Of a stretch of DNA of 64,000 nucleotides, positions 18,860 through 59,519 are shown in pieces. Under the pieces are notes generated by a model. It had not been told where the DNA came from and searched no databases. It saw only the letters and a program-made list of their open reading frames with translations. The stretch lies in contig CAMTJU010000001.1 in NCBI GenBank assembly GCA_947073045.1, positions 45,783-109,782 on the forward strand, in the 5' to 3' direction. The position numbers were made by a program, and so were the translations under genes. The DNA comes from an uncultured Clostridia bacterium. GTDB lineage: Bacteria > Bacillota > Clostridia > Lachnospirales > CAMVHY01. How positions within the stretch are numbered: position 1 is the stretch's first letter; every line of letters starts with the position of its first letter.

Positions 18860-18917
18860 TGAAATCTCCTCCTTCTTATAACTTTAGTATAAATTCAAGA
18901 GAAAATACTGATACTTA

Positions 18918-18946
18918 ATTATATCATTATTAATTAATAAATTCAA
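18918..18946 (-). promoter_or_regulatory. Sigma-A-type promoter of paralog A
   Basis: Minus strand: TTGAAT, 17 nt, TGATATAAT (extended -10). Same geometry in all four units. About 60-nt leader to the ATG. Confidence 0.5.
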
Positions 18947-19035
18947 ATCAAATAATATTTTTGCCAAAAATTAACTTAAAAAAACTTACCATTGATAATA
19001 TGTAACATAATTCATTCTTTTAGGCAAAAATTTAA

Positions 19036-19090
19036 CACAAAAAATGACCCCATTTTATTAAATTTTTCATTTAATAATTTGAGGTCATTT
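19036..19090 (-). terminator. Long-stem terminator now serving paralog B (inherited from the Cys-protein gene terminator)
   Basis: ~22-bp stem AAATGACCTCAAATTATTAAAT / ATTTAATAAAATGGGGTCATTT followed by TTTTTTGTGTT on the minus strand. The 80 nt here are identical to 30508..30587. Confidence 0.5.
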
Positions 19091-19119
19091 CAATTAATTA
19101 GATTAATTTTTGCTTATTG

Positions 19120-19285
19120 TTAATTGTTGCATCCGCAGTCATTATTAATTGTATTTACACCAGACATCCATACTTAGAATATTTGAGCTAATACCTGCTA
19201 AAAATTCAGGTTTTTGAGGAGGCGCAAACATATTCCAAAAAAATCATATGAGTTAAGCTGTAAAACATTTTAACATTATTTTGCT
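19120..19285 (-). pseudogene. Decayed 3' fragment of the Cys-terminated protein gene (copy 1)
   Basis: Aligns by eye to 30597..~30790 (TTAATTGTTGCATCCGCAGTCATTATTA...), with substitutions and a deletion. The right end is approximate. Confidence 0.65.
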
Positions 19286-19289
19286 ATAC

Positions 19290-19585
19290 ATAAGCCTTTT
19301 GACATTACTTTTAATAATAAAGATCATTATGATTTACAAGGATTGAGTTTAAAAAACGTGAAAATAATTTTGAAAAAATGCAGTAAAATTTTATATAATA
19401 ATTTTAACAAAATGAACCTCACACATTTAGACTTAAGTGACTTAATAATATCTAAACAAGCAGATTTTTATTAAATAATTTTTTCAATTACGAAAATTAC
19501 TTTTGATTTAAAACCCACACATTCTTAACTGAACAACTAGATTTAAGATTACAACATAATTTCAAAAAGTATCTGAGCTAGAAAA
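19290..19585 (+). pseudogene. Decayed internal fragment of the flavoprotein gene (matches about 15280..15560)
   Basis: GATCATTATGATTTACAAGGATTGAG... aligns to 15295.. (EHYDLQGL..) and carries many GC-to-AT changes and stops. The left end is approximate. The right end is overlapped by the paralog B stop. Confidence 0.75.
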
Positions 19586-22500: not shown

Positions 22501-22615
22501 TAATACTTAAACGTTCTGCTAACTCTTTGTCGCCTTGCGTCACTTTTTTTAAAGTTCTATCAATTTCTTTCCATCTTCCAGTATCTATAAATCCTTGATC
22601 TATAACTTCTTCCAT
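19562..22615 (-). CDS. Large paralog B (1017 aa), same uncharacterised family, long K/S/N-rich tail
   Basis: Start moved to the ATG at 22615 (MEEVIDQGFIDTGRWKEIDRTLKKVTQGDKELAERLS) after AAGGGGG. The TTG at 22702 in the ORF track is the -35 hexamer of the promoter. The last codons and the stop lie in the antisense of the flavoprotein fragment. Confidence 0.75.
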   Translation of the reverse strand: MEEVIDQGFIDTGRWKEIDRTLKKVTQGDKELAERLSIKARAAYLVGFSNDYPDEEAINEGINRVSFLPEIFTIHLINPNLDYEYLKSMQSMLLNCIGLHKFISEKAGNNENYFNFKGELTKWASSEIHKENLDIVPIVDDNFASSEVARYCVFEHEGKKCCVNYFKTILDKYNELFKGMSEKDKEKLNKYIKQANDIFFNLKFGVYNFEASKIIDSSFEFLGENQFHRFLNQDFWNDLNSDKIHFKSKRLSTILNEVKIIILPHLHISVNGKDRFLNPNCDNIPMFKNVNKIHDYVKKIQSVVNRLDGLSSQVNENDLNNYQILKSQLEGYYRFFEDQYPSYVSFNEIPSDGEIYAQKRQFIYYLENRLSHNEMLRLLDFIDTINKPNLEKIKKIMKLIDKNSSSREQNIETLLKIAQMILVSDISIEVMYKNDKFGFKSLKGVIYQKPEGDIEYSSPGTQKININERLSVYLEDSTGQEYLKRMIFLPENIDISTAVYNKLKNEPSNSIIQQRKKEIAYILGIVINSDYYKSLNPQEKSNLISEIMNTEGIADILQTINFLLDKNKVMSFRLEYFTDPSNYVNTELRKNLVEDARMFNNSKGLIEAFYLQYEKDKKELENMKISLDKIGRAILPRTRRRKKQLLMQVDDLTKKQENFNKLLNKTLSSIYGMRCPEVICCISKVLISEISSEMNVYKLTESVNSGFLNVSDFSLLKNLNGNLEASIDKILANKAINNNSKLELIQLVFKIAQNDPTGLLTQNVVQALEVNINISEIYIKNIYEISQRYNDGEFPEAIHDLLISNNETRLYTKFVNLKSTFEDLEKKRGKENSKGISKEEKTKNSIQENQESNKGKNEIELKKFSNNGSNVNSSIENSDTNRSVKNVSSKNKENSPSYLLNDIESENSNSETANSSLEDAPKNDIKNKHKNKSTSPSSSLKKASKSKRRQNKNIPEKNERNQENRIIKKKQKEIRRQNVPGKTGEGIIVKTKKISKKKKRKKNKNIDESSFSSSDTF

Positions 22616-22673
22616 TGAAATCGCCCCCTTCTTATAACTTCGGTATAAATTTAAGAGAAAGTATTGATACTTA

Positions 22674-22702
22674 ATTATATCATTATTAATTGACAAATTC
22701 AA
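22674..22702 (-). promoter_or_regulatory. Sigma-A-type promoter of paralog B
   Basis: TTGAAT (22702..22697), 17 nt, TGATATAAT (-10 at 22679..22674). Confidence 0.5.
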
Positions 22703-22902
22703 ATAAAATAATCTTTTGCCAAAAAAGTAACTTAAAAAAATTTTTGTTATCGAAATGCAATAAAAAAATTTGTTATTGATAATATATTACATAATCATTC
22801 ATTTATGCACAAATTTTAACACAAAAAATAAACCACATTTTATTAAATTTTTAATTTAACAATTTGAGGTAATTTCAATTAATAACTTATTTTGGCTTAT
22901 TG

Positions 22903-23090
22903 TTAATTGTTATATCCACAATCATTATTATTTTTGTTTACACCAGCTACATATGTACTTGGAATATTTAAGCTAATACCAGAAAAAATTTTAGGTTTCT
23001 GAAGCGCCACAAATACATACTTTGGGAAATCTAAGCTTTTAAAGAAATTACAACATAGATTAAGCAGCAAAACATTTTTACATTCTTTTG
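22903..23090 (-). pseudogene. Decayed 3' fragment of the Cys-terminated protein gene (copy 2)
   Basis: TTAATTGTTATATCCACAATCATTATTATT... aligns to 30597..30781 and ends at ..CATTCTTTTG. Confidence 0.65.
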
Positions 23091-23351
23091 ATTATTGTTA
23101 AAATCAGATGTATTTACCAAAACAAAAAAGTTAATGCAATAAAAAAGATGAACACAAAAAATTGGTCCATCATCTAAAAAATAATGCAATCATAATATTC
23201 AGCAAAGTTTGCACAAAAAAAATTAATCCATCTACAATGGAATCAAAAATTGTAAATGGATTATATATTTTACAGACGAAATAATTAATATCGATACCTT
23301 GACAAGCGGTTTTAATTTGTAAATTGCACTTTTTACAGATTATTAAAATAC
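23091..23351 (+). pseudogene. Decayed 3' fragment of the flavoprotein gene (copy matching 15601..15909, with an internal deletion)
   Basis: ATTATTGTTAAAATCAGATGTATTTACCAAAACAAAAAAGTTAATGC... aligns to GTTATTGTGGAAATTATCGGGATTTACCCAAACAAAAAAGTTAATAC... Confidence 0.7.
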
Positions 23352-26345
23352 TTAAATCGTTTTTTTGCGAAGACGTCGTTTTTTATTTTGGTCATTTTCT
23401 ATATTTTCGTTTTTTCTTCTTTTGGGTAATATTTTTTTACTTTGTTTTTTCCCTGAATTTTCATCAGTGAGTCTTTTTAATGGTTTTTCTCTATTCTGTA
23501 AATTTTCAACCTTCTTTTGCAATTTACGGTATTTAGTGTCAAAATCGTCACTTAAAAGCAAACAAACAATGGATCTCGGATAATTTCCTCTGGCATATTT
23601 TTGAGAAATATCATGTATAACTTTTATATAAGCTATACGATCCGCATAACCCATCTCTTTTAATCCTAGACTTACATTTTTCGTTAAAACTCCTGTTGGA
23701 TCATTTTTAGCAATTTCAGATACAAATTGATTTAACTTCGACTTACCACCACTTTCTTCTTCCAATTCAAAATTTATATCAGCATCGCTTTCTAATAAAT
23801 GCGATATTGCATCTTTAATAGATTTTAATTCAGCATCTTTATCAATATTTTCAAAATCATTTTTTTGGTCTTTCTCTGAATTTCTTTTGATTCTTTTATC
23901 TTGTTTTTCGTCATCGCGCTTTTCTAATGGTTTTGAAGCTTCAAGTTTATTGTGTAAATTATTTTCTATATAAGTATTTATCTTATAAAGCGAATTACTA
24001 ATATCATCAATTGAAACTTTTCTATGATTATATTTTTCAGAAATATTATATATTTTTTCCATGTAATATATACAATCATTATAATTATTAGCCGTCAATT
24101 CTAATACTAGATTTACATTTTCTGTTAAAAGTCCTACTTGATTATCATTTTTAGCAATTTTGAATACAAATTGAATCAACTCCAACTCCCTATCCCTGCT
24201 TATACCTAATTTCAATATTTTATTTATACTTTTGTATAAGTTTTCTGCAGGAAGCGATTTTATAGCTGCAATGCCATTATTAATAATATCAGATAGCATA
24301 TACAAATTTTCTGAAAAAACATTTGAATTTGTCATTTTAAATATACAATCAATAACTCTCTCACAAACTCTTTTATCTATTAAACTATTAAGCATCTTAT
24401 TTAATAATACATCAATTTTTCTTTGTTTTTTAGTTGTACCTTCAACTATACTTGACTTTTTTGCACTTTCTAAATATTGCATATAAAATGCATCAATTAA
24501 CTCTCTAAAAGAATAAATTAACTTAGAAATTCTCAGCACTTCTTCTTGATTTTCCTTTGATATATAGTTACTCGAATTAGTTAATTTACTTAATATATTT
24601 AACATTAATTCATCTTTATTTCTTTCTAGTAAAAAATCAATAGCATGCGTTATAAAATAAATATTGCTATCTTTAAATTGAGCGTCTTCAGGCAAAATAT
24701 AGTTAAACAAATCTGATTTTTCTAAATCTTCAAGTGATTTATAAGAAGTTGAACTAAGCATTATACCTAATACATGTGCAATTTTTTTATTTTCGGCTTC
24801 ATTTTTTTCTGAAGAATATCGTCGATGTGTTTTTTTTGCTTTTCGATAATGAGTTTCTTTTGCTTTTCTTTTATTATAAACAGCAGTTGATATATCAATA
24901 TTTTCTGGCAAAAAAATTATACGTTTAAGATATTCTTGATCAGTTGACTCTTCAAGATAAAAAGCTAAGCGTTCATTTATGTTGATTTTTTGACCATCTG
25001 ATAAATTCATCATCTCTATATCTTGTTCAGGTGTTTGATAAATTAAACCATTTAAACTCTTATAACCAAACTTCCCCTTTTGATACAACATCTCTACTGA
25101 AGGATCTGACACCAAGATCATTAGTATAATTTTTCCTAAATTTTCTTTTATTTGGTTTTCATCATATATATCTGGATTTATCAGATTCATTATTTTTTTT
25201 AGATTTGGTTTATCAATTGTGTATATTAAATCAGACAATCTAGCAGCTTTAGCAGTTACTTTGGTTAGGATTGAATTATAATTTTCATCACTTTCATCTG
25301 GCACCTCATAACTAAGGTAATCAATAAATTGGTCTTTCAGTTTATCAACATCTGCTTTTTTTGGCATTTGATTAAAAGAAACATAACTTAAATATTGGTT
25401 TGCAAAAAAGAAATAATACTTTTGCAATTCACTTTTTAAATTTCGATATTCAGGCAAATCGCTTTTATAGAAATTTTTTATTTCATTCAATTTATTTATA
25501 CTTTCTTGGATCATTTTCATATAATCATGTATTTCATCAGTATTTTTAAACACAGGAATATTTTCATGACTAGGATTCAAAAAACGATATCTACCATTTA
25601 CTTCTATACGCAAATGTGGCAATATATTGCTTTTTACTTCATTTAATATTGTATTTAATCTTTTACTTTTAAAACGTATTTCACCTGAATTTAATTTATT
25701 CCAAAAATCTTTATCCAAATTGCTATAATATTGAACTTGTCCAAAATAAATACTTTTTGCTTGATCAATAAATTCATTTAATTCTTTCTTATCTTTTGTA
25801 GAAATACTTGTAAGTAAATCTTTATATCTATCAAATATTTCTTCTAAACTATTAATACAATACTTTTTACCTTCATGTTCAAAATCATAAAATTGATTAA
25901 ATTCAACAGGTACAACATCTTCAAGTTCATTAAATCCAATTGTATTCCCCAAATTTTTATCAAAAACAGGTACAGCATTTGAAAATTCGCTATATTCAAA
26001 TTCCTTAATTTCAGAAAAATGTGAAACATCTGAATTTCTTATAAACGAATTAAGCAATTCATTCTCTAAATCGTCTTTCAAACTACTGTACTCATTTTTT
26101 CCTTTTTCTATTTTTTTTGATATAAATTTATGTAAAGCAACAAGATGCAAAAGCATATCTTGCATACTTTTCTTGTATTCAAAATTCAACTCCGGACTTG
26201 CCAATTGTTTTACAAATATATCATTACCAAAATTAGGATTAAGATAATTCAACGAATTGTCTCTCAACATCATACTTAAATATTCTGCTAATTCTTTGTT
26301 ACCTTGTGTCACTTTCCATCTTACAGTATCTATAACTCCTTCCAT
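23352..26345 (-). CDS. Large paralog C (997 aa), same uncharacterised family
   Basis: N-terminus MEGVIDTVRWKVTQGNKELAEYLS, with a short deletion relative to the others. Carries the conserved blocks EHEGKKYCIN, ILPHLRIEVNGRYRFLNP, QKININERLAFYLEESTDQEYLKRIIFLPENIDIS and two ..AKNDxxGxLT.. modules. Confidence 0.8.
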   Translation of the reverse strand: MEGVIDTVRWKVTQGNKELAEYLSMMLRDNSLNYLNPNFGNDIFVKQLASPELNFEYKKSMQDMLLHLVALHKFISKKIEKGKNEYSSLKDDLENELLNSFIRNSDVSHFSEIKEFEYSEFSNAVPVFDKNLGNTIGFNELEDVVPVEFNQFYDFEHEGKKYCINSLEEIFDRYKDLLTSISTKDKKELNEFIDQAKSIYFGQVQYYSNLDKDFWNKLNSGEIRFKSKRLNTILNEVKSNILPHLRIEVNGRYRFLNPSHENIPVFKNTDEIHDYMKMIQESINKLNEIKNFYKSDLPEYRNLKSELQKYYFFFANQYLSYVSFNQMPKKADVDKLKDQFIDYLSYEVPDESDENYNSILTKVTAKAARLSDLIYTIDKPNLKKIMNLINPDIYDENQIKENLGKIILMILVSDPSVEMLYQKGKFGYKSLNGLIYQTPEQDIEMMNLSDGQKININERLAFYLEESTDQEYLKRIIFLPENIDISTAVYNKRKAKETHYRKAKKTHRRYSSEKNEAENKKIAHVLGIMLSSTSYKSLEDLEKSDLFNYILPEDAQFKDSNIYFITHAIDFLLERNKDELMLNILSKLTNSSNYISKENQEEVLRISKLIYSFRELIDAFYMQYLESAKKSSIVEGTTKKQRKIDVLLNKMLNSLIDKRVCERVIDCIFKMTNSNVFSENLYMLSDIINNGIAAIKSLPAENLYKSINKILKLGISRDRELELIQFVFKIAKNDNQVGLLTENVNLVLELTANNYNDCIYYMEKIYNISEKYNHRKVSIDDISNSLYKINTYIENNLHNKLEASKPLEKRDDEKQDKRIKRNSEKDQKNDFENIDKDAELKSIKDAISHLLESDADINFELEEESGGKSKLNQFVSEIAKNDPTGVLTKNVSLGLKEMGYADRIAYIKVIHDISQKYARGNYPRSIVCLLLSDDFDTKYRKLQKKVENLQNREKPLKRLTDENSGKKQSKKILPKRRKNENIENDQNKKRRLRKKTI

Positions 26346-26412
26346 TGAAATCTCCCCCTTTTTATAACTTCGGTATATAAATTATAAATTCAGGAATAAG
26401 TATTGATACTTA

Positions 26413-26441
26413 ATTATATCATTATTAATTGACAAATTCAA
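26413..26441 (-). promoter_or_regulatory. Sigma-A-type promoter of paralog C
   Basis: TTGAAT, 17 nt, TGATATAAT on the minus strand. Confidence 0.5.
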
Positions 26442-26615
26442 ATTAGACAATCTTTTTGCCAAAAAATAATTTAAAAAATTTTGCTATTGATAATATGTGA
26501 CATAATTCATTCTTTTGCAGATAAATTTTAACACAAAAAATAGCCCCATTTTATTAAATTTTTCATTTAACAATTTGAGATCATTTCAATTAATTAGTTT
26601 ATTTTTGGCTTATTG

Positions 26616-26781
26616 TTAATTGTTGCATCCGCAGTCATTATTATTTGTGTTTACACCAGCAACATGTGTACTTGGGATATTTGAGCTAATACCTGTTAAA
26701 AATTCAGGTTTTTGAGGCGACGCAAATATATTTCAAAAAAATTACATGCGTTAAACATTGAAATATCTTCACATTCTTTTG
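26616..26781 (-). pseudogene. Decayed 3' fragment of the Cys-terminated protein gene (copy 3)
   Basis: TTAATTGTTGCATCCGCAGTCATTATTATTTGTGTTTACACCAGCAAC... aligns to 30597..30781 with a deletion. Same junction as copy 2. Confidence 0.7.
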
Positions 26782-27087
26782 AGCATTATTAAAATTATCG
26801 GCATTAGCTAAACAAAAAAGTTAATGCAATAAAAAAGATGAACGCAAAAAATTGATTCATCTTCTAAAAAATTTTGTTTTTACACCAATTAAATCATTGG
26901 ATTTCGAGAATACAATCATAACATCTGTAAGAGTTTACACAAAAAAAATTAATCCATCTACAATGAAATCAAAAATTGTAAATGGATTATATTTTGCAGA
27001 CAAAATAATTAATATTGATGAGCTTACAGACAGTTTGAATTTATAAATTACATTTTCTACAGATTATTAGATGGAAAAAATGCTTAA
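26782..27087 (+). pseudogene. Decayed 3' fragment of the flavoprotein gene (copy matching 15601..15913)
   Basis: The track ORF 26852..27046 translates to MIHLLKNFVFTPIKSLDFENTIITSVRVYTKKINPSTMKSKIVNGLYFADKIINIDELTDSLNL. This matches 48 of 64 residues of the intact C-terminus, and almost all differences are GC-to-AT changes. Confidence 0.8.
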
Positions 27088-30000
27088 TTATTTATTTTTG
27101 GACTTTTTTGTTTTATTTGACTCATTTTTTATTTTTCTTTGTCCTTTTTCGACTTTTTTTAATGGTCTGTTCACTCCATTTTTTTGTTCTTGGGCAACTT
27201 TTTTCATTGGAGATAATGAAGATGATGAAGAGAAATCTCCATATGTAACGTTAAGACTATCATTTTCATCGTATCCTTTAGCTTGTTCATAAATATCTGA
27301 ATTACTTACTCCTACACCTAATATATCATTTAATATATCATTTTTACAAAGAATTCTTTTTTCACCATCTGCTTTTTTTGCAGGTTTAGAATTATCTTTA
27401 TAACTTCCTGATAAACTATCAACAGTATTACTTGATGAATAATTTTCCTCTAAAAAAACTTCTGACTCTATTTTTTCTTGTTGTTCACTTAAATTATTTT
27501 CTTTTTCTGAATTTTCAAGAGTATCTATTTCTTCATGATAACTGCTATAATCTGCTTGATCCTCAACGTCACTATTTTTACTATCATCATTCTCTAGAGA
27601 AATATTACTAATATCTTCTGAATTATCTCCAACTTGAGAATCACCATTTTTATTATTAACGCTATCATTTGAATAACTTGATGACCCTGAATAATAACTT
27701 GATGAATAATAATTGGAACCTTTATCTAAATTATTTTCTACATTTCCAAAATTATTATTATTATTGTTATCCTCTAAAGAAGATTCTGACCTTACTCTTT
27801 CTTGGTTATTATGCGAATTTTCGCCAGCGACCCTTGGTATAGGTTTTAAAACTTTAATTTGATTGTGTAAACCACCGTATTTAGCGTATAATTTAGTATT
27901 TCTATCTTTATCACTATCGTCAGCACTATATTCAACTTCACTTTCAATCAAGTCACTAATATCCGATGGAAACTCTCCATTATTATACAATTGAGAAATC
28001 TTATATATATCATCCATATAAACTTTACGAACGTAATTATCACCAGCCGGCAATTTTAATACTTCATTTACTCTATTCATTAAATGGCCTGTTGGATCAT
28101 TTTGAGCAATTTTAAATACAAGTTGAATTAACTCCCACTCCCTATCCTTACTTATATTTAAATCCAATACATCATTTAAGTTTGAGGCCAAAATATTAGA
28201 AATTTGAATTAATTTTTCCTTAGACAAATCTTTTCTATCTATTAAACTATTAAGCGTCTGATTAAATAATTTATCAAAATTTTCTTGTTTTTTAGTCAAA
28301 TCATCAACTTGTTGCTTCAAAAGTTGTTCTTTTCGTTTTTTTCTTCGTCTTGTACTTGGCAAAATCGCAGTTTGTCCAATTTTGTCTAATGATTCTTTTG
28401 CGTTTTTTAATTCATTTTCGTATTTTTTATGTTGCTCATAAAATACATCAAGCAAATTATGACTATCATTAATTATATCAGAAATTCTCCACAATTCTTG
28501 CCGTTCTTTAGTTGAAATATAATTCTCTGGATTAATTAAGCGATTGAATATATCTAGTTTTACACCGTTATATCTATCTGTCAGATAATTAATTGCATGC
28601 GATATACTAACAGCAATGTTATTTTCAGTATTAATTATTTCATTAATAAAATCTTCTTTTGTTTCTTCAACTTCAAGTGAATTCTTACGTAATCTATAAC
28701 GAGTTAGCCGACTAACTTTTTCTGTTTCTTTAGGTTGTTCTTTAAGTAAATTTTTAAGTAATTCATAATAATCTTGTTCAACTTCATTTAATGCACCATT
28801 ATTACTAGACCGCTTTTTTTCTAATTTTTTTATTTCTTCTTCTATTTCTTTTTCTTCTTTTTCTATTGCTTCTTTTATTTTTTCAAGCTCATTTTGTTTT
28901 GTTTTTTTATCTTTAAGTGAATTAAAATGAGCTGAACTAAGCACTATATTGAGTACAGGTGAAATATTTGGATAATATAAATAAATATCAGATATATTAA
29001 TATTATCTCGCAAATAAATCATACGTTTAAGATACTCTTGACCAGTTGAATCTTCAAGATAACCAGATAGGCGTTCATTTATGTTGATTTTTTGATTGCC
29101 TAATGAATCCACCATCTCTATATCTTTAGATCCAGGTTTTTGATAGATTAAACCATTTGAACCATTTAAACTTATATACCCTAACTTTTTCTCTTGATAC
29201 ATCATCTCTACTGAAATATCTGATACTAAAATCATTTGCATAATTTTTCGCAAATTTTCTTGTCTTTGTTTACCATCAGGATACTTTTGGGGATCTGTTA
29301 GAACCAACATTTTTTTTAGATTTGGTTCATCAATTGTATATATTAAATCAAGTATTCTAAACTTTTCATCTTTTGACAAACTTTTGTAATAGTCACTCTG
29401 CACAAATTTATTCATCAGTGTATTAACATCTTTTCTAGTTGGCATTTGATTAAAAGAAACATAACTTAAATATTGATTCTCAAAAAATAAATAATACTTT
29501 TGTAATTCACTTTTTAAATTTTGATAATTAACTAAATCTCCTTCATTTAATTCTTGATTGCCCAATTCATTAAATCTATTTAAAACACGTTGGAGAATTT
29601 GCATCAAAGCTAATATATCATTAATATTTTTACACATAGGAATATTGTTATAATTAGGATTTAAAAAACGATCTTCGCCATTTACTTTTATATGCAAATG
29701 CGGCAATATTCCTTTCTTTACCATCGATAATACTTGATCTAAACTTTTATTTTCAAAAGATATTTCATCTGAATTTAATTTATTCCAAAATTCTGTATCC
29801 AATTTGTCACAATATTGAATGCTTTCAAAATTTCGAAAACCTCTTTTAATAACTTCTCTTGCTTCAACTGAAGGTCCATTTTTTAATAAGTTCAACACAT
29901 TGTTTAATTCTTCTTTATCGCTTGGATCCATAATAATACCTTCAAATTCATATTTATGAAGAACTTCTTTGATATTATTAATACAATATTTTTTACCTTT

Positions 30001-30327
30001 ATGTTCAAAAACATAAAATTGATTAAATTCATTTGGAACAAAATCGTTATCTACTGGTACAATATCACTTATGTGAACGTTCATTATATAACCTAATTTA
30101 TGCAAAGCAGCATAATGCAAAAATATATCTTGCATACTTTTTTTATATTCATAATCCACTTCTGGACTTAGTGTAAGTAGATTATTAGAAAATTTCATAA
30201 TGTTACTCAAATAATTATATATAACCGTCGGACTTAAACGTTCTGCTAACTCTTTGTCACCTTGTGTCATTTTTTCTAACATTCTATTAACTTCTTTCCA
30301 TCTTCCATTATCTATAACTCCTTCCAT
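27088..30327 (-). CDS. Large paralog D (1079 aa), same uncharacterised family, long S/N/D/E-rich tail
   Basis: N-terminus MEGVIDNGRWKEVNRMLEKMTQGDKELAERLS. Conserved blocks present, an extra E/K-rich coiled-coil-like insert (KEKEIEEEIKKLEKK), and a C-terminal ~250-aa low-complexity acidic/Ser-Asn region ending in a basic tail. Confidence 0.8.
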   Translation of the reverse strand: MEGVIDNGRWKEVNRMLEKMTQGDKELAERLSPTVIYNYLSNIMKFSNNLLTLSPEVDYEYKKSMQDIFLHYAALHKLGYIMNVHISDIVPVDNDFVPNEFNQFYVFEHKGKKYCINNIKEVLHKYEFEGIIMDPSDKEELNNVLNLLKNGPSVEAREVIKRGFRNFESIQYCDKLDTEFWNKLNSDEISFENKSLDQVLSMVKKGILPHLHIKVNGEDRFLNPNYNNIPMCKNINDILALMQILQRVLNRFNELGNQELNEGDLVNYQNLKSELQKYYLFFENQYLSYVSFNQMPTRKDVNTLMNKFVQSDYYKSLSKDEKFRILDLIYTIDEPNLKKMLVLTDPQKYPDGKQRQENLRKIMQMILVSDISVEMMYQEKKLGYISLNGSNGLIYQKPGSKDIEMVDSLGNQKININERLSGYLEDSTGQEYLKRMIYLRDNINISDIYLYYPNISPVLNIVLSSAHFNSLKDKKTKQNELEKIKEAIEKEEKEIEEEIKKLEKKRSSNNGALNEVEQDYYELLKNLLKEQPKETEKVSRLTRYRLRKNSLEVEETKEDFINEIINTENNIAVSISHAINYLTDRYNGVKLDIFNRLINPENYISTKERQELWRISDIINDSHNLLDVFYEQHKKYENELKNAKESLDKIGQTAILPSTRRRKKRKEQLLKQQVDDLTKKQENFDKLFNQTLNSLIDRKDLSKEKLIQISNILASNLNDVLDLNISKDREWELIQLVFKIAQNDPTGHLMNRVNEVLKLPAGDNYVRKVYMDDIYKISQLYNNGEFPSDISDLIESEVEYSADDSDKDRNTKLYAKYGGLHNQIKVLKPIPRVAGENSHNNQERVRSESSLEDNNNNNNFGNVENNLDKGSNYYSSSYYSGSSSYSNDSVNNKNGDSQVGDNSEDISNISLENDDSKNSDVEDQADYSSYHEEIDTLENSEKENNLSEQQEKIESEVFLEENYSSSNTVDSLSGSYKDNSKPAKKADGEKRILCKNDILNDILGVGVSNSDIYEQAKGYDENDSLNVTYGDFSSSSSLSPMKKVAQEQKNGVNRPLKKVEKGQRKIKNESNKTKKSKNK

Positions 30328-51799: not shown

Positions 51800-53047
51800 A
51801 TGAAAAAAATATCACTGGCCAAAAAAATTTTTGTCGCACTTATCTTGGGTTGCATATGCGGCATAATTTTTAATATTGCTCCGCAAAACTATTTCCTCGA
51901 TCACATATTTCTTGATGGAATAATAAATTTAATCGGGCAAGCATTTACTAACATAATTAAAGCAATGGTTGTACCACTCGTTTTTGTAAGCATTACTTTG
52001 GGTGTTGCGTCTATAGGTAATTTGAAAAAATTAGGCCGCGTCGGCTCAAAAATTATTGCGTTCTATTTTGGAACAACTGCCGTTGCCGTTAGCATTGCTA
52101 TTTTTTTTACAAAATTTATTAATCCCGGCTCAAGCTTTCATTTGCCAAATGCATCGCAAGTTCCTATCAGCCACGAACAAAAATTTAGCATCTCGAAAAT
52201 TATTTTAGACATTGTCCCTACAAATCCAATTGAATCACTGGCACAAGGTAACATGCTCCAAATTATTTTTTTTGCCGTTTTAATCGGAATAGGAATTACA
52301 CTTGTTGCAGATAAAGCTGTGCCTGTAAAAAAATTATTGGAGTCTATGAACGAAATTAATCTTAAACTTGTAGCAGTTATTATGGAATTTGCACCAATCG
52401 GAGTTTTTGCACTCATCACTTATACCTTTTCAAACTTTGGTTTTGAAATCATTGCCTCAATTTCTAAATTTCTGTTTGTTGTGTACTTAATACTTTTTTT
52501 CCACGCAATGTTTATTTATACGATAATGTTTAAATTCTGGACAAAGCTAGATATAAAAAAATTTTGGAAGAAATTTTGGCCTGTAGCTACCGTTGCTTTT
52601 TCAACTTCTTCCTCAAATGCCGCATTACCTGTTTCAATTGAAGCTGCAGATAAAATGGGAGTATCGCGCGATATTTCTTCATTTACTTTGTCCTTAGGCT
52701 CAACAATAAATATGAATGGCACCGCAATTATGCACGGTATAACTGTAATTTTTTTAGCGCATATCTACAACATAGATCTAAGTACAGCTGATTTAATTAA
52801 AGTCGTTTTAATGTCGACATTAGCATCTGTCGGAACAGCTGGCGTCCCTGGAGTAGGAATGCTTATGCTCGCAATGGTTCTTGAACTTGTAAATATTCCG
52901 GTTGAAGGAATTGGATTAGTTCTTGGCATAGACAGAATTTTAGATGCAGGCCGAACAGTTGTAAACGTAATGGGAGATTGCATTTGTACGGTAATAGTTG
53001 CAAAACTCGAAAATGAATTGGATGAAAAAAAATTTAATGATGTATAA
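51800..53047 (+). CDS. Dicarboxylate/amino acid:cation symporter (DAACS family)
   Basis: 415-aa polytopic protein with FSTSSSNAALP, NMNGTA and DRILDAGRTVVNVMGD motifs. Confidence 0.85.
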   Translation: MKKISLAKKIFVALILGCICGIIFNIAPQNYFLDHIFLDGIINLIGQAFTNIIKAMVVPLVFVSITLGVASIGNLKKLGRVGSKIIAFYFGTTAVAVSIAIFFTKFINPGSSFHLPNASQVPISHEQKFSISKIILDIVPTNPIESLAQGNMLQIIFFAVLIGIGITLVADKAVPVKKLLESMNEINLKLVAVIMEFAPIGVFALITYTFSNFGFEIIASISKFLFVVYLILFFHAMFIYTIMFKFWTKLDIKKFWKKFWPVATVAFSTSSSNAALPVSIEAADKMGVSRDISSFTLSLGSTINMNGTAIMHGITVIFLAHIYNIDLSTADLIKVVLMSTLASVGTAGVPGVGMLMLAMVLELVNIPVEGIGLVLGIDRILDAGRTVVNVMGDCICTVIVAKLENELDEKKFNDV

Positions 53048-53130
53048 AAAAAAAATCGCGTGCAATAATATTTATCGTAGAGAAAATCCTCTATACTAAA
53101 TTCGCACAAAAGCGAAGGGAGGTTCTAATT

Positions 53131-53208
53131 ATGAACGATAATAAAAATGATAAATATAATGAAGAAGCATCTTCTTCTGATAAAAAGAATAAAAACAGCA
53201 ACAAGTAG
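53131..53208 (+). CDS. Candidate small hydrophilic protein (25 aa)
   Basis: Not in the ORF track. Strong RBS AAGGGAGG 9 nt before the ATG. Sequence MNDNKNDKYNEEASSSDKKNKNSNK. A hairpin terminator follows 10 nt downstream. Confidence 0.35.
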   Translation: MNDNKNDKYNEEASSSDKKNKNSNK

Positions 53209-53216
53209 TTAAAAAT

Positions 53217-53267
53217 ATAAAAAGAGTGCAAGCTAAGTTTTAGGGGCAAAGCTTGCACTCTTTTTTT
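53217..53267. terminator. Bidirectional terminator (small ORF / holA)
   Basis: AAAAAGAGTGCAAGC...GCTTGCACTCTTTTTTT. Confidence 0.6.
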
Positions 53268-54243
53268 ATGCCGAATATTTCATAATTAAAGTTTCTACTG
53301 CCAATTTATCAGAAAGCTGACCTGTTTTTACTTTATAATCCACATCCAAACAATCTTTTATTGCACAAATTAATTTATCAGATGAAAAATTTTTACTCTG
53401 GCGCAGGCAATCAGATATTACAAAACTTCTCGTTCCTAATTTTTGAGCAATGGAACTAGAATCAAGACCGGAATTTGAAAAAATTTTTGATTGTAGGATA
53501 AGAACAAATTGACGCGATATCATCGCCAAAATCATTAATGGCTGCTCTTTGAGAAAAATCAAATTGTTATAGCTTTCGAGCGCCAATTTTAAATTTTTAT
53601 TGCCCATATTAGCTACCAAATCAAAAATTTTAGCATCCACAGATTTTGTACATAACAAATTTATTTGCTCGCTGTTAATTTCTTCAGAGCAATAATTAAT
53701 TAATTTACCCAATTCATTTTTCAAAAATTCCATATTCCCCATCGTTATTTTTAATATAAGCAAAGCATTTTCGGGTGAAATTATTTTTTTGTTCACCTTA
53801 CAAATTTTTATTATCCATTTGACTAATTCTTTATCGATTGGCTTTTTTATTTCCGAAGCCAATCCTACATCACAAATTTTTTTATATAATTTATTTCGTT
53901 TATCAATCTTGCTCTCGCAAAAAATAATTATAGATGATTTGGGAAAGTCATCAATATATTTTAAAATCAATTCAGTTTCATTTTTCTTGCCGCTATAAAA
54001 AAATCCACTTTCTTTTATAATCACCAAACGATATTCATTCATAAATGGCAATGACATTACACAATTGATAATAGCGTCAGCATTCTCTTCAAAAATATTA
54101 AAATTCATATCTGAAAATTCTTCAGGTATGAATTTTTTCTTGAGTTCATTGACATAATGGTTTTTCAAATAATCTTCTTCTCCGTAAAACAAATAAAAAT
54201 TTTTTGGATTACCTTGCTCTATCTCTTTTAAAATATTTATCAT
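53266..54243 (-). CDS. holA: DNA polymerase III subunit delta
   Basis: 325-aa ORF with ..FYLFYGEEDYL.. and a typical HolA length and layout. comEC lies upstream, as in other Firmicutes. Confidence 0.85.
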   Translation of the reverse strand: MINILKEIEQGNPKNFYLFYGEEDYLKNHYVNELKKKFIPEEFSDMNFNIFEENADAIINCVMSLPFMNEYRLVIIKESGFFYSGKKNETELILKYIDDFPKSSIIIFCESKIDKRNKLYKKICDVGLASEIKKPIDKELVKWIIKICKVNKKIISPENALLILKITMGNMEFLKNELGKLINYCSEEINSEQINLLCTKSVDAKIFDLVANMGNKNLKLALESYNNLIFLKEQPLMILAMISRQFVLILQSKIFSNSGLDSSSIAQKLGTRSFVISDCLRQSKNFSSDKLICAIKDCLDVDYKVKTGQLSDKLAVETLIMKYSA

Positions 54244-54318
54244 TTTTCATCCTCCAAGGTTCTGTAAAAACTTTATTATTCTCTCTGCACAAACTTAAAT
54301 TTACTCTTAATCAAATTA

Positions 54319-54711
54319 TTATTTACCTTTGTGTTTTTCTTTTCGTTTTTGCTGCTTCATTTCAAATTTATATTTTTTCTCCATTTCTTTTTGTTTGCGA
54401 CTAATTTGTCTGCGTTGCATTTTTGTTTGCTCTTGCTGCAATTTTAAAGTTTGCTGCGATTTTGTTCCAATTCCTGACGTAACAAGCTGTCTCTTAACAC
54501 TTCGTTGCATTCGCTTTGGATTCATTTTAATATCTTTTTTGTTATTTTCCACGCTTAAACTAAATTTCATTTCATAATAATTACACAAAATCCATTCGTA
54601 TACCTCATAATCTTTTGGCATTGCGCCGAAAATTATTTTACTTGCAGATAATTTTCCTTCTGAAACTCGTTCAAACACTCCAATCCAAAACGGATCATCA
54701 AAAAAACTCAA
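54319..54711 (-). CDS. YjdF-family (DUF2992-like) protein, 5' end affected by a T7 homopolymer
   Basis: ..FWIGVFERVSEGKL..MNPKRMQRSVKRQL.. plus a K/R/Q-rich tail, as in B. subtilis YjdF (from memory). The RBS-linked ATG at 54727 (MNKIELEFF) is one base out of frame across the T7 run at 54700..54706. Confidence 0.7.
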   Translation of the reverse strand: MSFFDDPFWIGVFERVSEGKLSASKIIFGAMPKDYEVYEWILCNYYEMKFSLSVENNKKDIKMNPKRMQRSVKRQLVTSGIGTKSQQTLKLQQEQTKMQRRQISRKQKEMEKKYKFEMKQQKRKEKHKGK

Positions 54712-54757
54712 GTTCTATTTTGTTCATTTTCACAATATTATCACCTTTAAATAAAAA

Positions 54758-55642
54758 CTATAATTTGATATCACAAATTTCATTTGCATCTTTAGGCAAC
54801 TCCCTTACACATTTTAAAAACTTACGGCAATTTTTGCTTTCCTGCAAATTATATTCATATCTCAATTTTTCTCCTACGTAAATAGAATTACGATCAAACA
54901 ATGCGCACATTTTTTCTACAGCAATCCAACATTTTTCTATCGTACATGTATCATAAGTTTCGAGATAAGTTTGCCATTCATTTTTGTTGAGCCATTTATA
55001 CATATACTTACCCGATTTGCCAACACTCACAGAAAAATTTGTTTTAATCCCAATTTTCCAGGATAACATTTTTTCTAATTGCTTGCGCACGTTGAAATTA
55101 ATCATATCTTGTACGTATGGAATTTCTTTTCGCCAGAGCCCCTTTGCAACATTGCCAAGACACCACCAAAATTCATTACACACGCATAAATATTCTGGCC
55201 GTGATGGTTTTTTTACCCAATAATCAAAATCTGTAGGCTCAGGCAATTTTGGTAAAATATTATCTTTATCCAATAAAATTTTGCACAATTTATCGCGCAA
55301 AATATTTTTCTTTGCATAATCTACGCTCGATAAATGCAAGTCTATACGATTGCCATCGGAAAATTGCATCAAAATTCCATAAAAATTTTCTATATCAGTT
55401 TGCTCATCTGCAAATTCATCCGGCAACTGCATAAAAATTATATCACCAAATTTATTAATCCAGTTTTTATTTTCAATAAAAGGCTTTATACAATCGACAA
55501 CGTACACAATATCGTAATCTTGAAAAATATCCCTAGGAGCATTTTTATTTGTGCGCGACCCGTTAATATAAACCGCTCGAATATTTTTGTTTTCATTAGC
55601 CAAATTTAAAATGATATCATACATAACTTTTTCACTGCGCAT
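54758..55642 (-). CDS. Aminoglycoside 6-adenylyltransferase ANT(6)/AadK-like
   Basis: MRSEKVMYDIILNLANENKNIRAVYINGSRTN..FQDYDIVYVV.. is closely similar in pattern to the ANT(6)-Ia/AadK N-terminus (MRSEKEM...). Start at the ATG at 55642 after GGAGAG. Confidence 0.85.
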   Translation of the reverse strand: MRSEKVMYDIILNLANENKNIRAVYINGSRTNKNAPRDIFQDYDIVYVVDCIKPFIENKNWINKFGDIIFMQLPDEFADEQTDIENFYGILMQFSDGNRIDLHLSSVDYAKKNILRDKLCKILLDKDNILPKLPEPTDFDYWVKKPSRPEYLCVCNEFWWCLGNVAKGLWRKEIPYVQDMINFNVRKQLEKMLSWKIGIKTNFSVSVGKSGKYMYKWLNKNEWQTYLETYDTCTIEKCWIAVEKMCALFDRNSIYVGEKLRYEYNLQESKNCRKFLKCVRELPKDANEICDIKL

Positions 55643-55654
55643 GAGCAAACTCTC

Positions 55655-57988
55655 CTAATTTATTTGAGCAATAATCTTAATTTTGTCACTGCCCAAAAAT
55701 TTTATAGCCACAGCTCCGCTTTGAGCTGTATTTATTAACGGAATATTTAAATCTTGCAAACGTTGCACAATTTCTTTGCTTGGATGTCCGTAAGAATTAT
55801 TTACACCGCTGCTTACAATTGCCAAACTCGGATTTACTTTCTTTAAAAATTCTAATGTGGAAGAAGTTTTTGAACCGTGATGCGCTAATTTTAAAATATC
55901 TGCGCTAATATTTTCATTGGACAATAAAATTTCCTGTTCAGCATTTTTTTCGATATCACCCGTAAACAAAATATCTTTTCCTTCCAGATTTAATTTTAGA
56001 ACCAAAGAAGTATCGTTGTTATTTTCAGCCTTGGTATTTTCAAAAGGATACAAACAATAAAAATCCGCCTTATTAAATTTCAAATCATCGCCCGATTTCA
56101 AATAATAAATTGGTACAGAAAATTTTTCTGCTTCCAAAATTAATTTTTGTGATAAATCATCGTCAGAAATTTTTTCAGACAAAAAAATTTGCCCAACATT
56201 TTTTTTGCTTAATAATTCAATTATACCAATAATATGGTCGGCATCGCTGTGAGAAACAAAAACTGCATCAACATAATTTTTTGCTTTGTAATCCAAATAC
56301 GGAACAAGAATATTTACGCCGGTATTGTTTCCAATATCCTGAGTTCTTTTGCCGCCGCCGTCAATTATAAAAGTTTGCCCGCTGTTTACAACAAAACAAT
56401 CTCCCTGCCCTACATCGAGCATAACAATTTCTGATGCCTTTGGAAAAAATATTGCAATAACAATACAAAATGCAAAAAAAATTGAATAGCAAGCAAAATA
56501 TTTTTTAGCGCTAGTAAATTTTTCATTGAAGCTACTTAGCATAAATATGAGCAAAAAAATCCAAACTAAATAAAAAATTATAAAGGCAAAATTTACGTAC
56601 CCAACTAATATTTTTGAAAATGGTAGCGCAATAAAAATTTGGCTGACTTTCTCATAAAACCTAAGCAATAAAAAAATGGGCGCAGATAAAAAACTTGATG
56701 CCTCAATGCAAAACAATCCAATAATTCCTACAGCAAATCCCAATATGACAACGAGCGATATGTTTGGCAAAACAAACAAATTTACAAAAATGCTGTACGG
56801 TGTAAAATAATAAAAATAATAGAGTGTAACAACAAAAGTAAATAAAGATGCAGCAATTGATGCCGAAAAATATTTTTCAACAAATCTATTTTTAAGAAAA
56901 AGATTAAGCTCTGGAATTTTTAATGCCGCCAGCGAAAATCCTCTTTGAATTGCAAAATTGCAAGTTGCAATTCCAAACACTGCCCCAAACGAATATTCAA
57001 AGCCAACATCAAAAATATAAAATGGGTTATACATAAGAAGGATTAAAGCTGCAAATGATAATGAAGTAATTAAATCGCGCTCACGATAAATTATATCTCC
57101 AATAATTATAATAGACGCCATAATTACCGCACGTACTGTCGAAACACTCGAACCTGTCATTATGCAATATAAAATCAACAACAAAATTGAAATAAAACCA
57201 GACGTCTTTTGACTGCATAAAAATCTCAATAAAAAATTAAAGGCCAAAGCTACGATAGAAATATGCAATCCTGAAATTGCAAGAATGTGATAAATGCCAG
57301 CCGTTTTGTATAACTCACTTGTGTAATCATCTAAATCCGATTTATCACCAATAATCATTGATTTAATAATAGAAGCTTCTTTGCTCTGAAAGATCGTATC
57401 GTAAACATCACCCAAATTATTTCTAAATTGCTCAAGATGGTAAAGCAAATGATTTTCTATTTGCCCATTTTCAATTTTATTAGGAAACATTTTATAAAAA
57501 AGTAAATGCGTACGAAAATAATTTTCTTCGTCAAAGCCACCTGGATTTCTTTTTTTACTTGGCAACAATAATTTGCCAGACATAGTAATTTTTTCGCCCA
57601 TATTTGCAAGTTGTTCTTTATCGTCTGAAAAATAAACTTGTATATTAAAACTTTTCTCGATTGAATTTCCATCGCCCGTTTCAAAATTTAGAGTCTTGAC
57701 TATCGCACGATGATAATTTCTTATCGGCCCTACATTCTTCACTATCCCCGTAACAATTATATTTTTATTTATAAATTCGTCAGGCAATAAAGTTTTAGAA
57801 AATTGAGTGCGACCAACTCCACAAAAAAATATCACAAAAAACAACAGCATTGATTTTATTCCATATTTATAATAAATAAAAATCAATGCTGAAAAAATAA
57901 TTCCTACTGCAAAAATAAAATTAGTTAATTGCGATAAAACAATCCCTAAAATAAAAAACAGTACGCAAATGAATAATGGACGCTTCAT
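55655..57988 (-). CDS. comEC: DNA internalization-related competence protein ComEC/Rec2
   Basis: 777-aa ORF with a polytopic competence domain and a C-terminal metallo-beta-lactamase domain (MLDVGQGD, HSDADH, HHGS). Confidence 0.9.
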   Translation of the reverse strand: MKRPLFICVLFFILGIVLSQLTNFIFAVGIIFSALIFIYYKYGIKSMLLFFVIFFCGVGRTQFSKTLLPDEFINKNIIVTGIVKNVGPIRNYHRAIVKTLNFETGDGNSIEKSFNIQVYFSDDKEQLANMGEKITMSGKLLLPSKKRNPGGFDEENYFRTHLLFYKMFPNKIENGQIENHLLYHLEQFRNNLGDVYDTIFQSKEASIIKSMIIGDKSDLDDYTSELYKTAGIYHILAISGLHISIVALAFNFLLRFLCSQKTSGFISILLLILYCIMTGSSVSTVRAVIMASIIIIGDIIYRERDLITSLSFAALILLMYNPFYIFDVGFEYSFGAVFGIATCNFAIQRGFSLAALKIPELNLFLKNRFVEKYFSASIAASLFTFVVTLYYFYYFTPYSIFVNLFVLPNISLVVILGFAVGIIGLFCIEASSFLSAPIFLLLRFYEKVSQIFIALPFSKILVGYVNFAFIIFYLVWIFLLIFMLSSFNEKFTSAKKYFACYSIFFAFCIVIAIFFPKASEIVMLDVGQGDCFVVNSGQTFIIDGGGKRTQDIGNNTGVNILVPYLDYKAKNYVDAVFVSHSDADHIIGIIELLSKKNVGQIFLSEKISDDDLSQKLILEAEKFSVPIYYLKSGDDLKFNKADFYCLYPFENTKAENNNDTSLVLKLNLEGKDILFTGDIEKNAEQEILLSNENISADILKLAHHGSKTSSTLEFLKKVNPSLAIVSSGVNNSYGHPSKEIVQRLQDLNIPLINTAQSGAVAIKFLGSDKIKIIAQIN

Positions 57989-58923
57989 TTTTCTTCACGC
58001 TTTATAATTTTTTCATTGCGCTCAATCGGTTTATTTAAATCAAAAATCCATGCAGGCTGATTTGTTTTCTCAGACTCAATAAGAAATTGAACTTTATTTA
58101 TATTTTCAAGCTCGGTCAATGAATTTACAATTGAGTATAATGCAAACTTTTGGCTTTCACTATCATTATTCTTGTTTGCAAATTCACCACTTAAACTTAC
58201 GTAACAAATGCCTTCATCAGTTTTTATATCATGGATTTTAGTTTCAGGTGGAACAGTTGCAGACAAATCCGAATTTATTGGTCCCGATATTATTTGTTCC
58301 AATACGTATCTTTCAAGAGGTTGATTCGGATTTATATTTATCATGCGTTCCTCACACGATAATTTATTTTTATCGCGAAAATACAATTTAACAAGATACA
58401 AATCAGTTTTTTCATCAGAAATTTGCGGATTAATAACAACGTTTGTACGATTTAACCCTCCCATAGATGAACCATCACTTTTTTTTAATGGCTGAGAATC
58501 TACAAATATAATTACATTATCGACAAAATCTAAACTTGTCAAAGTCCAAACGAGAGAACTGCGAAAAAAAAGTTCGTCCTGCGCATTCAAATTATTGTAC
58601 TCATTTGAAAAATTTATTTGCGCAGACCTATCATCATTTAATTCAATATCTATAACTTTTAAATTTGTAATAGGAAATGCAGATAAATTTTTACTTTTTG
58701 GGCCTTCATACAAAATATTTATTGCGTCGGACAAAATCTTTTTATTGTCACTATCTGAAATGCTTCGATACTCCTGCTCGATTAAATTTTCAACCAAATT
58801 AGGAAAATAAGTTTCAATTTTCACACGGTCAATTGTTTTGCTATTTATTATGCTAAATATAAAAAGACTGCAAAATACAGCAATGCAAATCAAAATTATA
58901 ACAACTAGATTATTTTTATTCAT
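57985..58923 (-). CDS. GerM-domain (GerMN) lipoprotein-like sporulation/germination protein
   Basis: N-terminal TM/signal anchor and two GerMN-like repeats (..LYFRDKN..LSCEERMIN.., ..CYVSLSGEF..). Start at the ATG at 58923. Overlaps the comEC start by 4 nt. Confidence 0.65.
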   Translation of the reverse strand: MNKNNLVVIILICIAVFCSLFIFSIINSKTIDRVKIETYFPNLVENLIEQEYRSISDSDNKKILSDAINILYEGPKSKNLSAFPITNLKVIDIELNDDRSAQINFSNEYNNLNAQDELFFRSSLVWTLTSLDFVDNVIIFVDSQPLKKSDGSSMGGLNRTNVVINPQISDEKTDLYLVKLYFRDKNKLSCEERMININPNQPLERYVLEQIISGPINSDLSATVPPETKIHDIKTDEGICYVSLSGEFANKNNDSESQKFALYSIVNSLTELENINKVQFLIESEKTNQPAWIFDLNKPIERNEKIIKREEK

Positions 58924-59060
58924 TGTCCATCCCACCAAAACAATTCTCTTTTTTTAATAATATCACATATGCAAAAATATTTATAAAATCATGTTGCTAA
59001 ATAATCTTTTAAGTCGTATAATAATTTCAAGCAACAAAAAATTTGAAAGGAGAAAACAAA

Positions 59061-59519
59061 ATGATTTTTTGGGCATTATTTTTATTACTACTTGGAATTT
59101 TATTTTTTGCTGTAGAAATATTTGTACCGGGATTTGGAATTTTTGGCGCGTTTAGTTTCATTTCTATCACTGCATCATTTTTTATAATTTTTATTTATGT
59201 ACCATATGGATTTTTTGTAGTCGCAGCCCAATTAATTTTGCTTATCATAGCTTCCATTATATTGATTCACGTTATCAAAAAGCATAAAATCATTAATAGA
59301 CTGATTTTAAGCGAAAATCTCAACGATGATAAAAAAATAAACCCCGATTCATTTTTAAACAAAGTTGGTATTACAACTACTATGCTTAAACCATCGGGAT
59401 TTGTCAAATTTGACAATGATACCGTTGAAGTATATTCGCAATCAGGTTTAATTAAACCTAATGTGAATGTAAAAGTAACTCAGGTTTATAATAAAAAAAT
59501 TTTTGTTGATAAAATTTAG
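59061..59519 (+). CDS. NfeD family membrane protein
   Basis: Three TM helices plus a C-terminal OB-like domain ([24 protein letters not shown]). Precedes floA, as yqfB-yqfA does. Start at the ATG after AAAGGAGA. Confidence 0.75.

Follow-up and report, generated by a model that had tools for sequence, protein, structure and literature searches.

The window analysed here, a 64,000-nt stretch of contig CAMTJU010000001.1 from an uncultured Clostridia bacterium, carries an ANT(6)-family aminoglycoside nucleotidyltransferase gene (hereafter ANT) and a yjdF/DUF2992-like gene between comEC and holA, and we find that the extra 1411 nt at this junction are a lineage-specific insertion. The explanation we favor is that a promoter-less ANT gene and a yjdF gene without its riboswitch were acquired horizontally, probably from gut Clostridia of the Lachnospiraceae or Oscillospirales type, where the closest relatives of both genes are found (60-69% identity). 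They would have integrated exactly at the junction between the comEC stop and the holA start of a gerM-comEC-holA operon, in an ancestor of the window species and its closest sister lineage. ANT would then have taken over the ribosome-binding position right after comEC and been kept as an active enzyme by purifying selection; its likeliest chemistry, with substrate and phenotype predicted by analogy, would be the Mg-ATP-dependent O-adenylylation of the streptomycin 6-hydroxyl, the reaction of AadK and ANT(6)-Ia/Ib. The yjdF copy, cut off from azaaromatic-riboswitch control, would be decaying, its native start lost by a 2-bp deletion. For this explanation as a whole, which blends the insertion history with the enzyme activity, we estimate a probability of about 0.7, the insertion history taken by itself being highly probable.

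The insertion between comEC and holA

A search with HolA gave relatives of falling identity, whose contigs we read for gene order. In five sampled lineages, represented by seven contigs, with holA 47-74% identical to that of the window, the order is gerM-comEC-holA with nothing between, comEC directly abutting or overlapping holA: L097 (holA 74%), L098 (72%), L087/L088 and L089 (both 71%) and L092 (47%). A gerM-like gene lies 5' of comEC in all relatives. The empty junctions consist of an ATGA overlap in L087, TAA-TTG in L089 and L098, and TAG...GTG in L092. In L098 collinearity with the window extends to either side of the junction, through ATP synthase a/I, tsaE, floA, nfeD, gerM, comEC, holA, an SDF transporter gene and a pseudouridine synthase gene (RluB). 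When the window operon is compared with L098 by blastn, the alignment is continuous at 73% and 78% identity save for window positions 54246-55695, which correspond to 35 nt in L098. Since the break in homology is confined to this interval, the inserted DNA is 54244-55654. The identical locus is present on many metagenome contigs (L003-L006). The claim of an earlier, letters-only reading of this DNA (the original prediction) that two extra genes sit between comEC and holA is thus borne out by the empty junctions, and the four-gene order is not universal in the clade.

Gene identities in the segment 53266-58938 are based on open reading frame (ORF) listings and on Pfam and NCBIfam profile searches. 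On the minus strand the order is gerM, comEC, ANT, yjdF and holA, and the two middle ORFs (296 and 130 aa) occupy exactly 54319-55648. The features of the locus are:

54244-55654, minus strand: lineage-specific insertion of 1411 nt, from comEC stop to holA start
54758-55642, minus strand: ANT(6)-family nucleotidyltransferase gene, 294 aa (PF04439, 382 bits), start ATG 55642
54319-54733, minus strand: yjdF/DUF2992-like gene without riboswitch (PF11208, 156 bits), native start GTG 54733 or ATG 54727
57985-58938, minus strand: gerM-like gene (Germane domain, PF10646, E 6.5e-38), first gene of the operon, its stop overlapping the comEC start
55655-57988, minus strand: comEC, DNA internalisation channel and metallo-beta-lactamase-type (MBL) nuclease (PF03772, DUF4131, Lactamase_B), upstream flank of the insertion
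53266-54243, minus strand: holA, DNA polymerase III delta (PF06144, PF21694, TIGR01128), downstream flank of the insertion
53215-53269, no strand assigned: hairpin from the repeat search, with 20-bp arms, 95% complementary, and T runs on both sides, likely a bidirectional terminator ending the operon after holA

The flanking genes score well above their NCBIfam cut-offs, with 292.7 bits against 190 for comEC (ComEC/Rec2 model TIGR00361) and 265 bits against 80 for holA (TIGR01128), and the gene names given in the original prediction are right at the family level by Pfam, NCBIfam and PDB sequence searches. The nearest named relative of holA comes from an 'uncultured Tyzzerella sp.' (45% identity), and the host has the appearance of an anaerobic spore former of the Clostridia type. 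The ORF of ANT as listed spans 54758-55648 (296 aa). The true start is most likely the ATG at 55642 (MRSEKV...), because the sequence AGGAGAG (55656-55650), which overlaps the comEC stop, sits 7 nt before it.

The sister lineage (L001/L002) shares the four-gene order, with ANT 96%, comEC 95% and holA 94% identical to the window. The synonymous divergence (dS) between the window and L001 is 0.137 for ANT, 0.142 for comEC and 0.277 for holA; because the value for ANT is about that for comEC, the insert was already present before the two lineages split. The GC content at third codon positions (GC3) is 0.30 in ANT versus 0.23-0.26 in gerM, comEC and holA, and the base composition of the insert is largely ameliorated. 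A database of 5.8 billion proteins holds no relative of ANT between 96% and 68% identity, so that no recent donor or recipient is visible.

The absence of a flanking transposase or repeats, already noted in the original prediction, is confirmed: the table of genes and Pfam domains for L003, an identical contig, lists no transposase, integrase or relaxase within about 8 kb, and the search for direct or inverted repeats flanking the insert returned only AT-rich matches at chance level. The best plasmid match to ANT is 49% identical (Bacillus cereus group) and the best phage match 45% (aadE of a Streptococcus prophage). The hallmarks of a mobile resistance cassette, namely mobility genes, flanking repeats and near-identical mobile copies, are all missing at the insert. 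Together with the comEC-like dS of ANT, this supports the earlier preference for an old chromosomal insertion, now an ordinary locus without mobility functions, over a mobile cassette.

ANT is most likely co-transcribed with comEC and holA by read-through. Several features point this way: gerM and comEC overlap, the ribosome-binding site of ANT lies on the comEC stop, the spacers within the insert are short (24-75 nt) and lack terminators, and a hairpin stands at the holA stop. Specifically, no minus-strand terminator-like site was found in the intergenic spacers from comEC to holA, and the one coding-strand terminator-like match between these genes (55303-55278) lies inside the ANT coding sequence. 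holA is essential (clamp loader), and therefore transcription must either cross the insert or start within it; the gene has its own ribosome-binding site, GGAGGA, in the 75-nt spacer. A promoter scan found 47 sites where 36.8 +/- 5.4 are expected, which is uninformative in DNA this rich in AT (30% GC). At the gathering threshold no Rfam RNA was detected in the whole window, which has a GC content of 29.5%. The one sub-threshold match, to L20_leader (25 bits, E 0.12), falls at 53153-53272, on the hairpin that separates holA from the convergent SDF transporter gene. It was taken as chance, the hairpin being more plausibly a bidirectional terminator than a leader.

A different arrangement was seen in L090 (1138-7993; holA 62%), where a 1846-aa ORF without Pfam match replaces comEC before holA. 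The order is rearranged upstream and conserved downstream (SDF transporter, pseudouridine synthase).

The ANT protein and its clade

ANT matches PF04439 (Adenyl_transf) with 382.4 bits against a cut-off of 22 (E 1.4e-114), its residues 3-279 aligning with positions 1-277 of the 279 in the profile, and it matches two PDB entries over its full length, 8vxb (ANT(6)-Ib, E 1.3e-55) and 2pbe (AadK, E 6.1e-55). The identity is 43-45% to ANT(6)-Ia, 39% to ANT(6)-Ib and 38% to AadK. In an alignment with these three enzymes the residues G28, S29, R30, D38, D42, D44, D96 and D101 are invariant, as are K126, E157, K167, R171, E173, D179, R186, K209 and K212 further along the protein, and ANT thereby keeps the nucleotidyltransferase signature of G28-S29 and D42-x-D44, a pol-beta-type motif. 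Mutagenesis of an Elizabethkingia enzyme showed that Asp-38 and Asp-42 are needed and implicated conserved Lys and Trp residues (PMC10460174); the counterparts of the two aspartates, D38 and D42, are present in the window ANT.

Selection has also left its mark on the gene. For ANT, the ratio of nonsynonymous to synonymous divergence (dN/dS) comes to 0.12 when the window is compared with L001, matching the low value of holA, and the 90% cluster of ANT contains four alleles, each of them intact with 294 aa. On these two grounds ANT very probably encodes a selected, active enzyme. Among characterised ANT(6) enzymes, streptomycin resistance is still conferred at identities as low as about 26% (PMC10343464), which makes ANT(6) chemistry the best guess. 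We put the odds somewhat better than even that the predicted activity, streptomycin 6-adenylylation, is correct.

The closest known counterparts are two chromosomal, non-mobile enzymes, Bacillus subtilis AadK (PDB 2PBE) and Paenibacillus thiaminolyticus ANT(6)-If, which share with ANT the PF04439 domain, the length, the two-domain layout and the GS...DxD motif; like the window gene, ant(6)-If is reported to have no insertion sequence, transposon or integron nearby (PMC10343464). ANT differs from AadK in being only 38% identical and under both the AadK and the generic ANT_6 cut-offs, and from both counterparts in its putative activity and in sitting inside a housekeeping operon instead of standing alone. 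ANT(6)-Ia (aadE, of Enterococcus and Streptococcus plasmids and prophages) and ANT(6)-Ib (Campylobacter fetus, PDB 8VXB) align over about 90-100% of the length (E 1e-55 to 1e-58) and share the conserved charged residues. Unlike these, at 43-45% and 39% identity respectively, ANT lies outside the aadE-sat4-aphA-3 cluster or any mobile element, and it carries R99 where they have Lys, as well as a C-terminal extension specific to its clade (..ELPKDANEICDIKL). The extension is shared with homologues from Clostridia and Lachnospiraceae annotated as 'aminoglycoside 6-adenylyltransferase' (Clostridium disporicum, Roseburia and Acetatifactor metagenome-assembled genomes), which are about 290 aa long and 57-69% identical. 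The genes of that clade, however, lie in many unrelated contexts, often behind PNP_UDP_1, and only in the window lineage and in L067 between comEC and holA. What is new here is a member of the PF04439/ANT(6) family in a new chromosomal context.

The ANT search matched 7839 clusters at 90% identity. We surveyed the context of the 80 best ANT loci of GTDB species representatives, 57-69% identical to the window gene; the window species itself does not appear among them. Their hosts, which include Lachnospiraceae, Roseburia, Acetatifactor, Ruminococcus, Acutalibacteraceae and Clostridium disporicum, are gut-type anaerobes. At 79 of the 80 loci neither comEC, holA nor DUF2992 occurs within 8 kb. 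The genes next to ANT represent 130 Pfam families, the commonest being PNP_UDP_1, directly upstream (12 of 141 neighbors), with helix-turn-helix (HTH) regulators, GNAT, MobA/MobL (3) and beta-lactamase (3) among the others; the ANT of this clade is an accessory gene that is frequently relocated. The PNP_UDP_1 gene has about 253 aa, is 66-71% identical between loci and lies on the same strand in 12 of the sampled loci (for example L007 7124-7882; also L010, L014, L025, L028, L034 and L038). Its product may work together with the ANT of the Clostridia clade. L094, too, has a PNP_UDP_1 gene, near its yjdF.

The exceptional locus is L067 (4673-9964, an uncultured bacterium with 46% GC), which reads gerM-comEC-ANT-holA without yjdF, its comEC and holA being 30% and 34% identical to those of the window. 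In the nearest sampled relatives of L067 (L179-L181, holA 54%) the comEC-holA junction is empty. An ANT(6)-like gene has therefore apparently landed independently at this junction in two unrelated lineages, a reading supported by the empty-site relatives on both sides and not by the neighbor-joining tree of 84 ANT sequences (100 bootstraps), in which the window branch is long, its placement is unsettled, and the most recent common ancestor of the window and L007 leaves out L067 in only 29 of 100 replicates. If the two insertions were shared by ancestry, several precise losses would be needed. More speculatively, and with the odds well against it, the junction of comEC stop and holA start could be a recurrent landing site for ANT(6)-like genes that belong to the Clostridia clade and lack promoters of their own. 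They would ride on essential holA transcription, and their selected function, in anaerobes impermeable to aminoglycosides, is maybe not streptomycin resistance.

The detached yjdF gene

The second inserted gene matches PF11208 (DUF2992) at full length (156.2 bits, E 6.8e-46, profile positions 4-132 of 132), and its product has a Lys/Arg-rich C-terminal tail (...KQQKRKEKHKGK). The closest relatives outside the lineage are 138-aa Lachnospiraceae proteins at 60-65% identity. The 130-aa ORF (54319-54711) begins at TTG 54711, without a ribosome-binding site and without the invariant Val. The native start, GTG 54733 or ATG 54727 behind AAAGGTGA, is out of frame with the main ORF because of a 2-bp deletion relative to L001 in a G/T run, around 54700-54709. 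It now opens a mini-ORF closed by TGA 54698-54700, 10-12 codons long according to which start codon is used, and no intact frame leads from it through the conserved N-terminus L-x-V-F-F-[DE]-[DE]-P-F-W.

The sister lineages have intact genes, of 136 aa in L001 and P0195 (M[NT]KIEL[KR]VFFDDPFW...) and likewise intact at 136 aa in P0196. The deletion is not an assembly error, since 13 contigs drawn from several samples carry the frameshifted allele of the window. Other frameshifts occur in P0198 and P0199, two more alleles of this 90% cluster, on one contig each. Selection on yjdF is thus relaxed and the gene is decaying, ANT being kept. The loss may be incomplete at the protein level: GAG-UUU-UUU-UGA (U-UUU-UGA at 54698-54706) has the exact form of a +1 'shifty stop', and by a slip at this point, which would restore the conserved EFFDDPFW, the frameshifted yjdF might, speculatively, still be expressed.

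The regulatory context has also been lost. The association of YjdF with the azaaromatic riboswitch is near-universal (PMC4793209), and RF01764 lies upstream of 18 of the 19 closest outside relatives of the window yjdF (17 of 18 metagenome homologues, and L094). Here it is absent, both from the whole window at the gathering threshold and from 53000-59200 at E<=1; in the window and in L001 alike, yjdF follows only 24-30 nt 3' of the ANT stop, with no detectable riboswitch. The window copy resembles riboswitch-controlled YjdF in its full-length PF11208 match, in the FFDDPFWxGxFE N-terminus of the intact alleles and in the Lys/Arg-rich tail (PMC4793209); it differs in lacking the riboswitch, in its place 24-30 nt behind another gene in an operon and in the lost native start. 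To judge from the decay of this riboswitch-less copy, YjdF may have little value without its ligand-responsive control.

Nor does the pairing with ANT recur. DUF2992 was not found within 8 kb of ANT at any of the 80 ANT loci, nor ANT within 4 kb of yjdF at any of 80 metagenome yjdF loci, and since the pairing is therefore unique to the window lineage (0 of 160 loci), the two genes need not have arrived together.

An AlphaFold2 model of the intact YjdF allele, from a 27-sequence alignment, has a mean predicted local distance difference test score (pLDDT) of 60 and a predicted template modelling score (pTM) of 0.27, the N-terminal domain scoring below 50, a quality too low to support a fold search. 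A PDB sequence search with YjdF returned chance matches only (E >=0.4). The best-scoring outside relative of the window YjdF is the 203-aa protein P0204, encoded on a 5.8-kb NCBI contig (L093 345-5506) by one of three consecutive DUF2992 ORFs (99, 203 and 77 aa), which adjoin genes for a 513-aa unknown protein and for an OLD-family (AAA_21/TOPRIM) nuclease.

Alternative explanations and wider meaning

Several observations weigh against the favored explanation, most of them bearing on what the enzyme does. ANT reaches none of the five curated NCBIfam ANT(6) cut-offs used by AMRFinder and PGAP, with 262.7 bits against 420 for ANT_6 (NF033084), 194.6 against 600 for AadK, 170.7 against 500 for Str, 145.4 against 450 for AadS and 91.1 against 620 for Ig; the gene would therefore go uncalled by AMRFinder. 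In a comparison of that type the original prediction of an ANT(6) enzyme holds as to the family, with a full-length PF04439 match, and falls short at the curated level. Within the G-x-K-[IL]-D-L motif the Lys of the validated enzymes is replaced, in this protein and clade-wide, by Arg-99, a conservative change. The tree places ANT in a large Clostridia-specific clade, well apart from AadK and ANT(6)-Ib, and our literature searches found no experimentally characterised member of that clade. Anaerobes are intrinsically resistant to aminoglycosides, because these drugs depend on respiratory electron transport for their uptake (PMC5745468). As a probable anaerobe the host would not take up aminoglycosides, so that selection for streptomycin resistance is hard to see, and the streptomycin phenotype of ANT may be irrelevant there. 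With regard to history and expression, the donor is not pinned down, the nearest ANT being 69% identical and its position unresolved by the neighbor-joining bootstrap, and the case for co-transcription consists only of spacing and absent terminators.

Alternatively, ANT would be an active PF04439 nucleotidyltransferase with another physiological substrate, such as a hydroxylated or aminocyclitol metabolite, its activity on streptomycin being incidental or absent. We regard this as possible, though clearly less probable than the streptomycin activity. Besides the missed cut-offs and the clade-wide K-to-R change at position 99, it is favored by an identity of at most 38-45% to validated enzymes, by the size of the clade (7839 clusters) and its commonness in obligately anaerobic, intrinsically aminoglycoside-resistant gut Clostridia (PMC5745468), and by neighbors that are mixed metabolic and regulatory genes, most commonly PNP_UDP_1 (12/141), and not classical resistance clusters; the purifying selection (dN/dS 0.12) would then need another explanation. 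Against this, every alignable residue that is invariant among ANT(6)-Ia, ANT(6)-Ib and AadK is kept, AadS still inactivates streptomycin at about 26% identity (PMC10343464, PMC10460174), and some members of the clade do adjoin MobA/MobL, GNAT or beta-lactamase genes. The suitable label is 'ANT(6)-like, activity unverified'.

The alternatives to the insertion history fare worse. An ancestral four-gene order, from which ANT and yjdF were precisely and repeatedly deleted in relatives, would account for the comEC-ANT-holA order in the distant L067, and the ANT tree is too poorly resolved to argue against a common ancestry of the two ANTs. It is nevertheless very unlikely: five sampled lineages are empty, including a deep one (holA 47%), as are the relatives of L067 (L179-L181); the empty junctions (ATGA, TAA-TTG, TAG-GTG) resemble ancestral coupling and not deletion scars; the closest relatives of both genes are found in other taxa and unrelated contexts; and the GC3 of ANT is above that of the flanks. 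It is just as improbable that ANT and YjdF form a functional two-gene module, for joint detoxification or of a toxin-antitoxin-like kind, that moved as one cassette. The genes are neighbors on one strand, with 24-30 nt between them in either carrier lineage, their nearest relatives occur at similar identity in Lachnospiraceae-type genomes, and YjdF has been proposed to counter toxic planar compounds (PMC4793209). However, the pairing was seen at none of 80 ANT loci (8 kb) and none of 80 yjdF loci (4 kb), L067 has ANT without yjdF, and in the window yjdF is frameshifted while ANT is intact. An anti-phage defence or toxin-antitoxin nucleotidyltransferase module is likewise without support from PADLOC, which gives no match for ANT and, for YjdF, 18 bits to a Cas6 model, at chance level; the pairing is absent at the 160 homologous loci. 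Least probable of all is a recently acquired mobile resistance cassette. ANT(6) genes are indeed common on enterococcal and staphylococcal plasmids and in Streptococcus prophages, yet the best mobile-element match to the window gene is 49%, no transposase, integrase or repeat accompanies it, its dS across the lineage split is like that of the flanking comEC, and nothing lies between 96% and 68% identity in 5.8 billion proteins.

An old insertion, as favored here, offers a clean and datable case of a resistance-family gene turned fixed chromosomal passenger in a housekeeping operon, with both empty and filled sites sampled. It also illustrates how annotation by family name can over-reach: this ANT(6) homologue is under all curated antimicrobial-resistance cut-offs, its host probably has no need for the resistance, and it should be kept out of the tally of validated streptomycin resistance genes in resistome surveys. 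Finally, the case points to a Clostridia clade of ANT(6)-like enzymes that is very large and uncharacterised, with thousands of annotations.

Elsewhere in the window, four tandem ORFs of 981, 1046, 997 and 1079 aa lie on the minus strand at 15914-30327, separated by about 0.5-0.75 kb of non-coding DNA. They have no Pfam match at 1e-5, ORF 1 is a paralogue of ORF 3 (37% identity over 703 aa, E 5e-120), and together they are a family of large proteins of unknown function.

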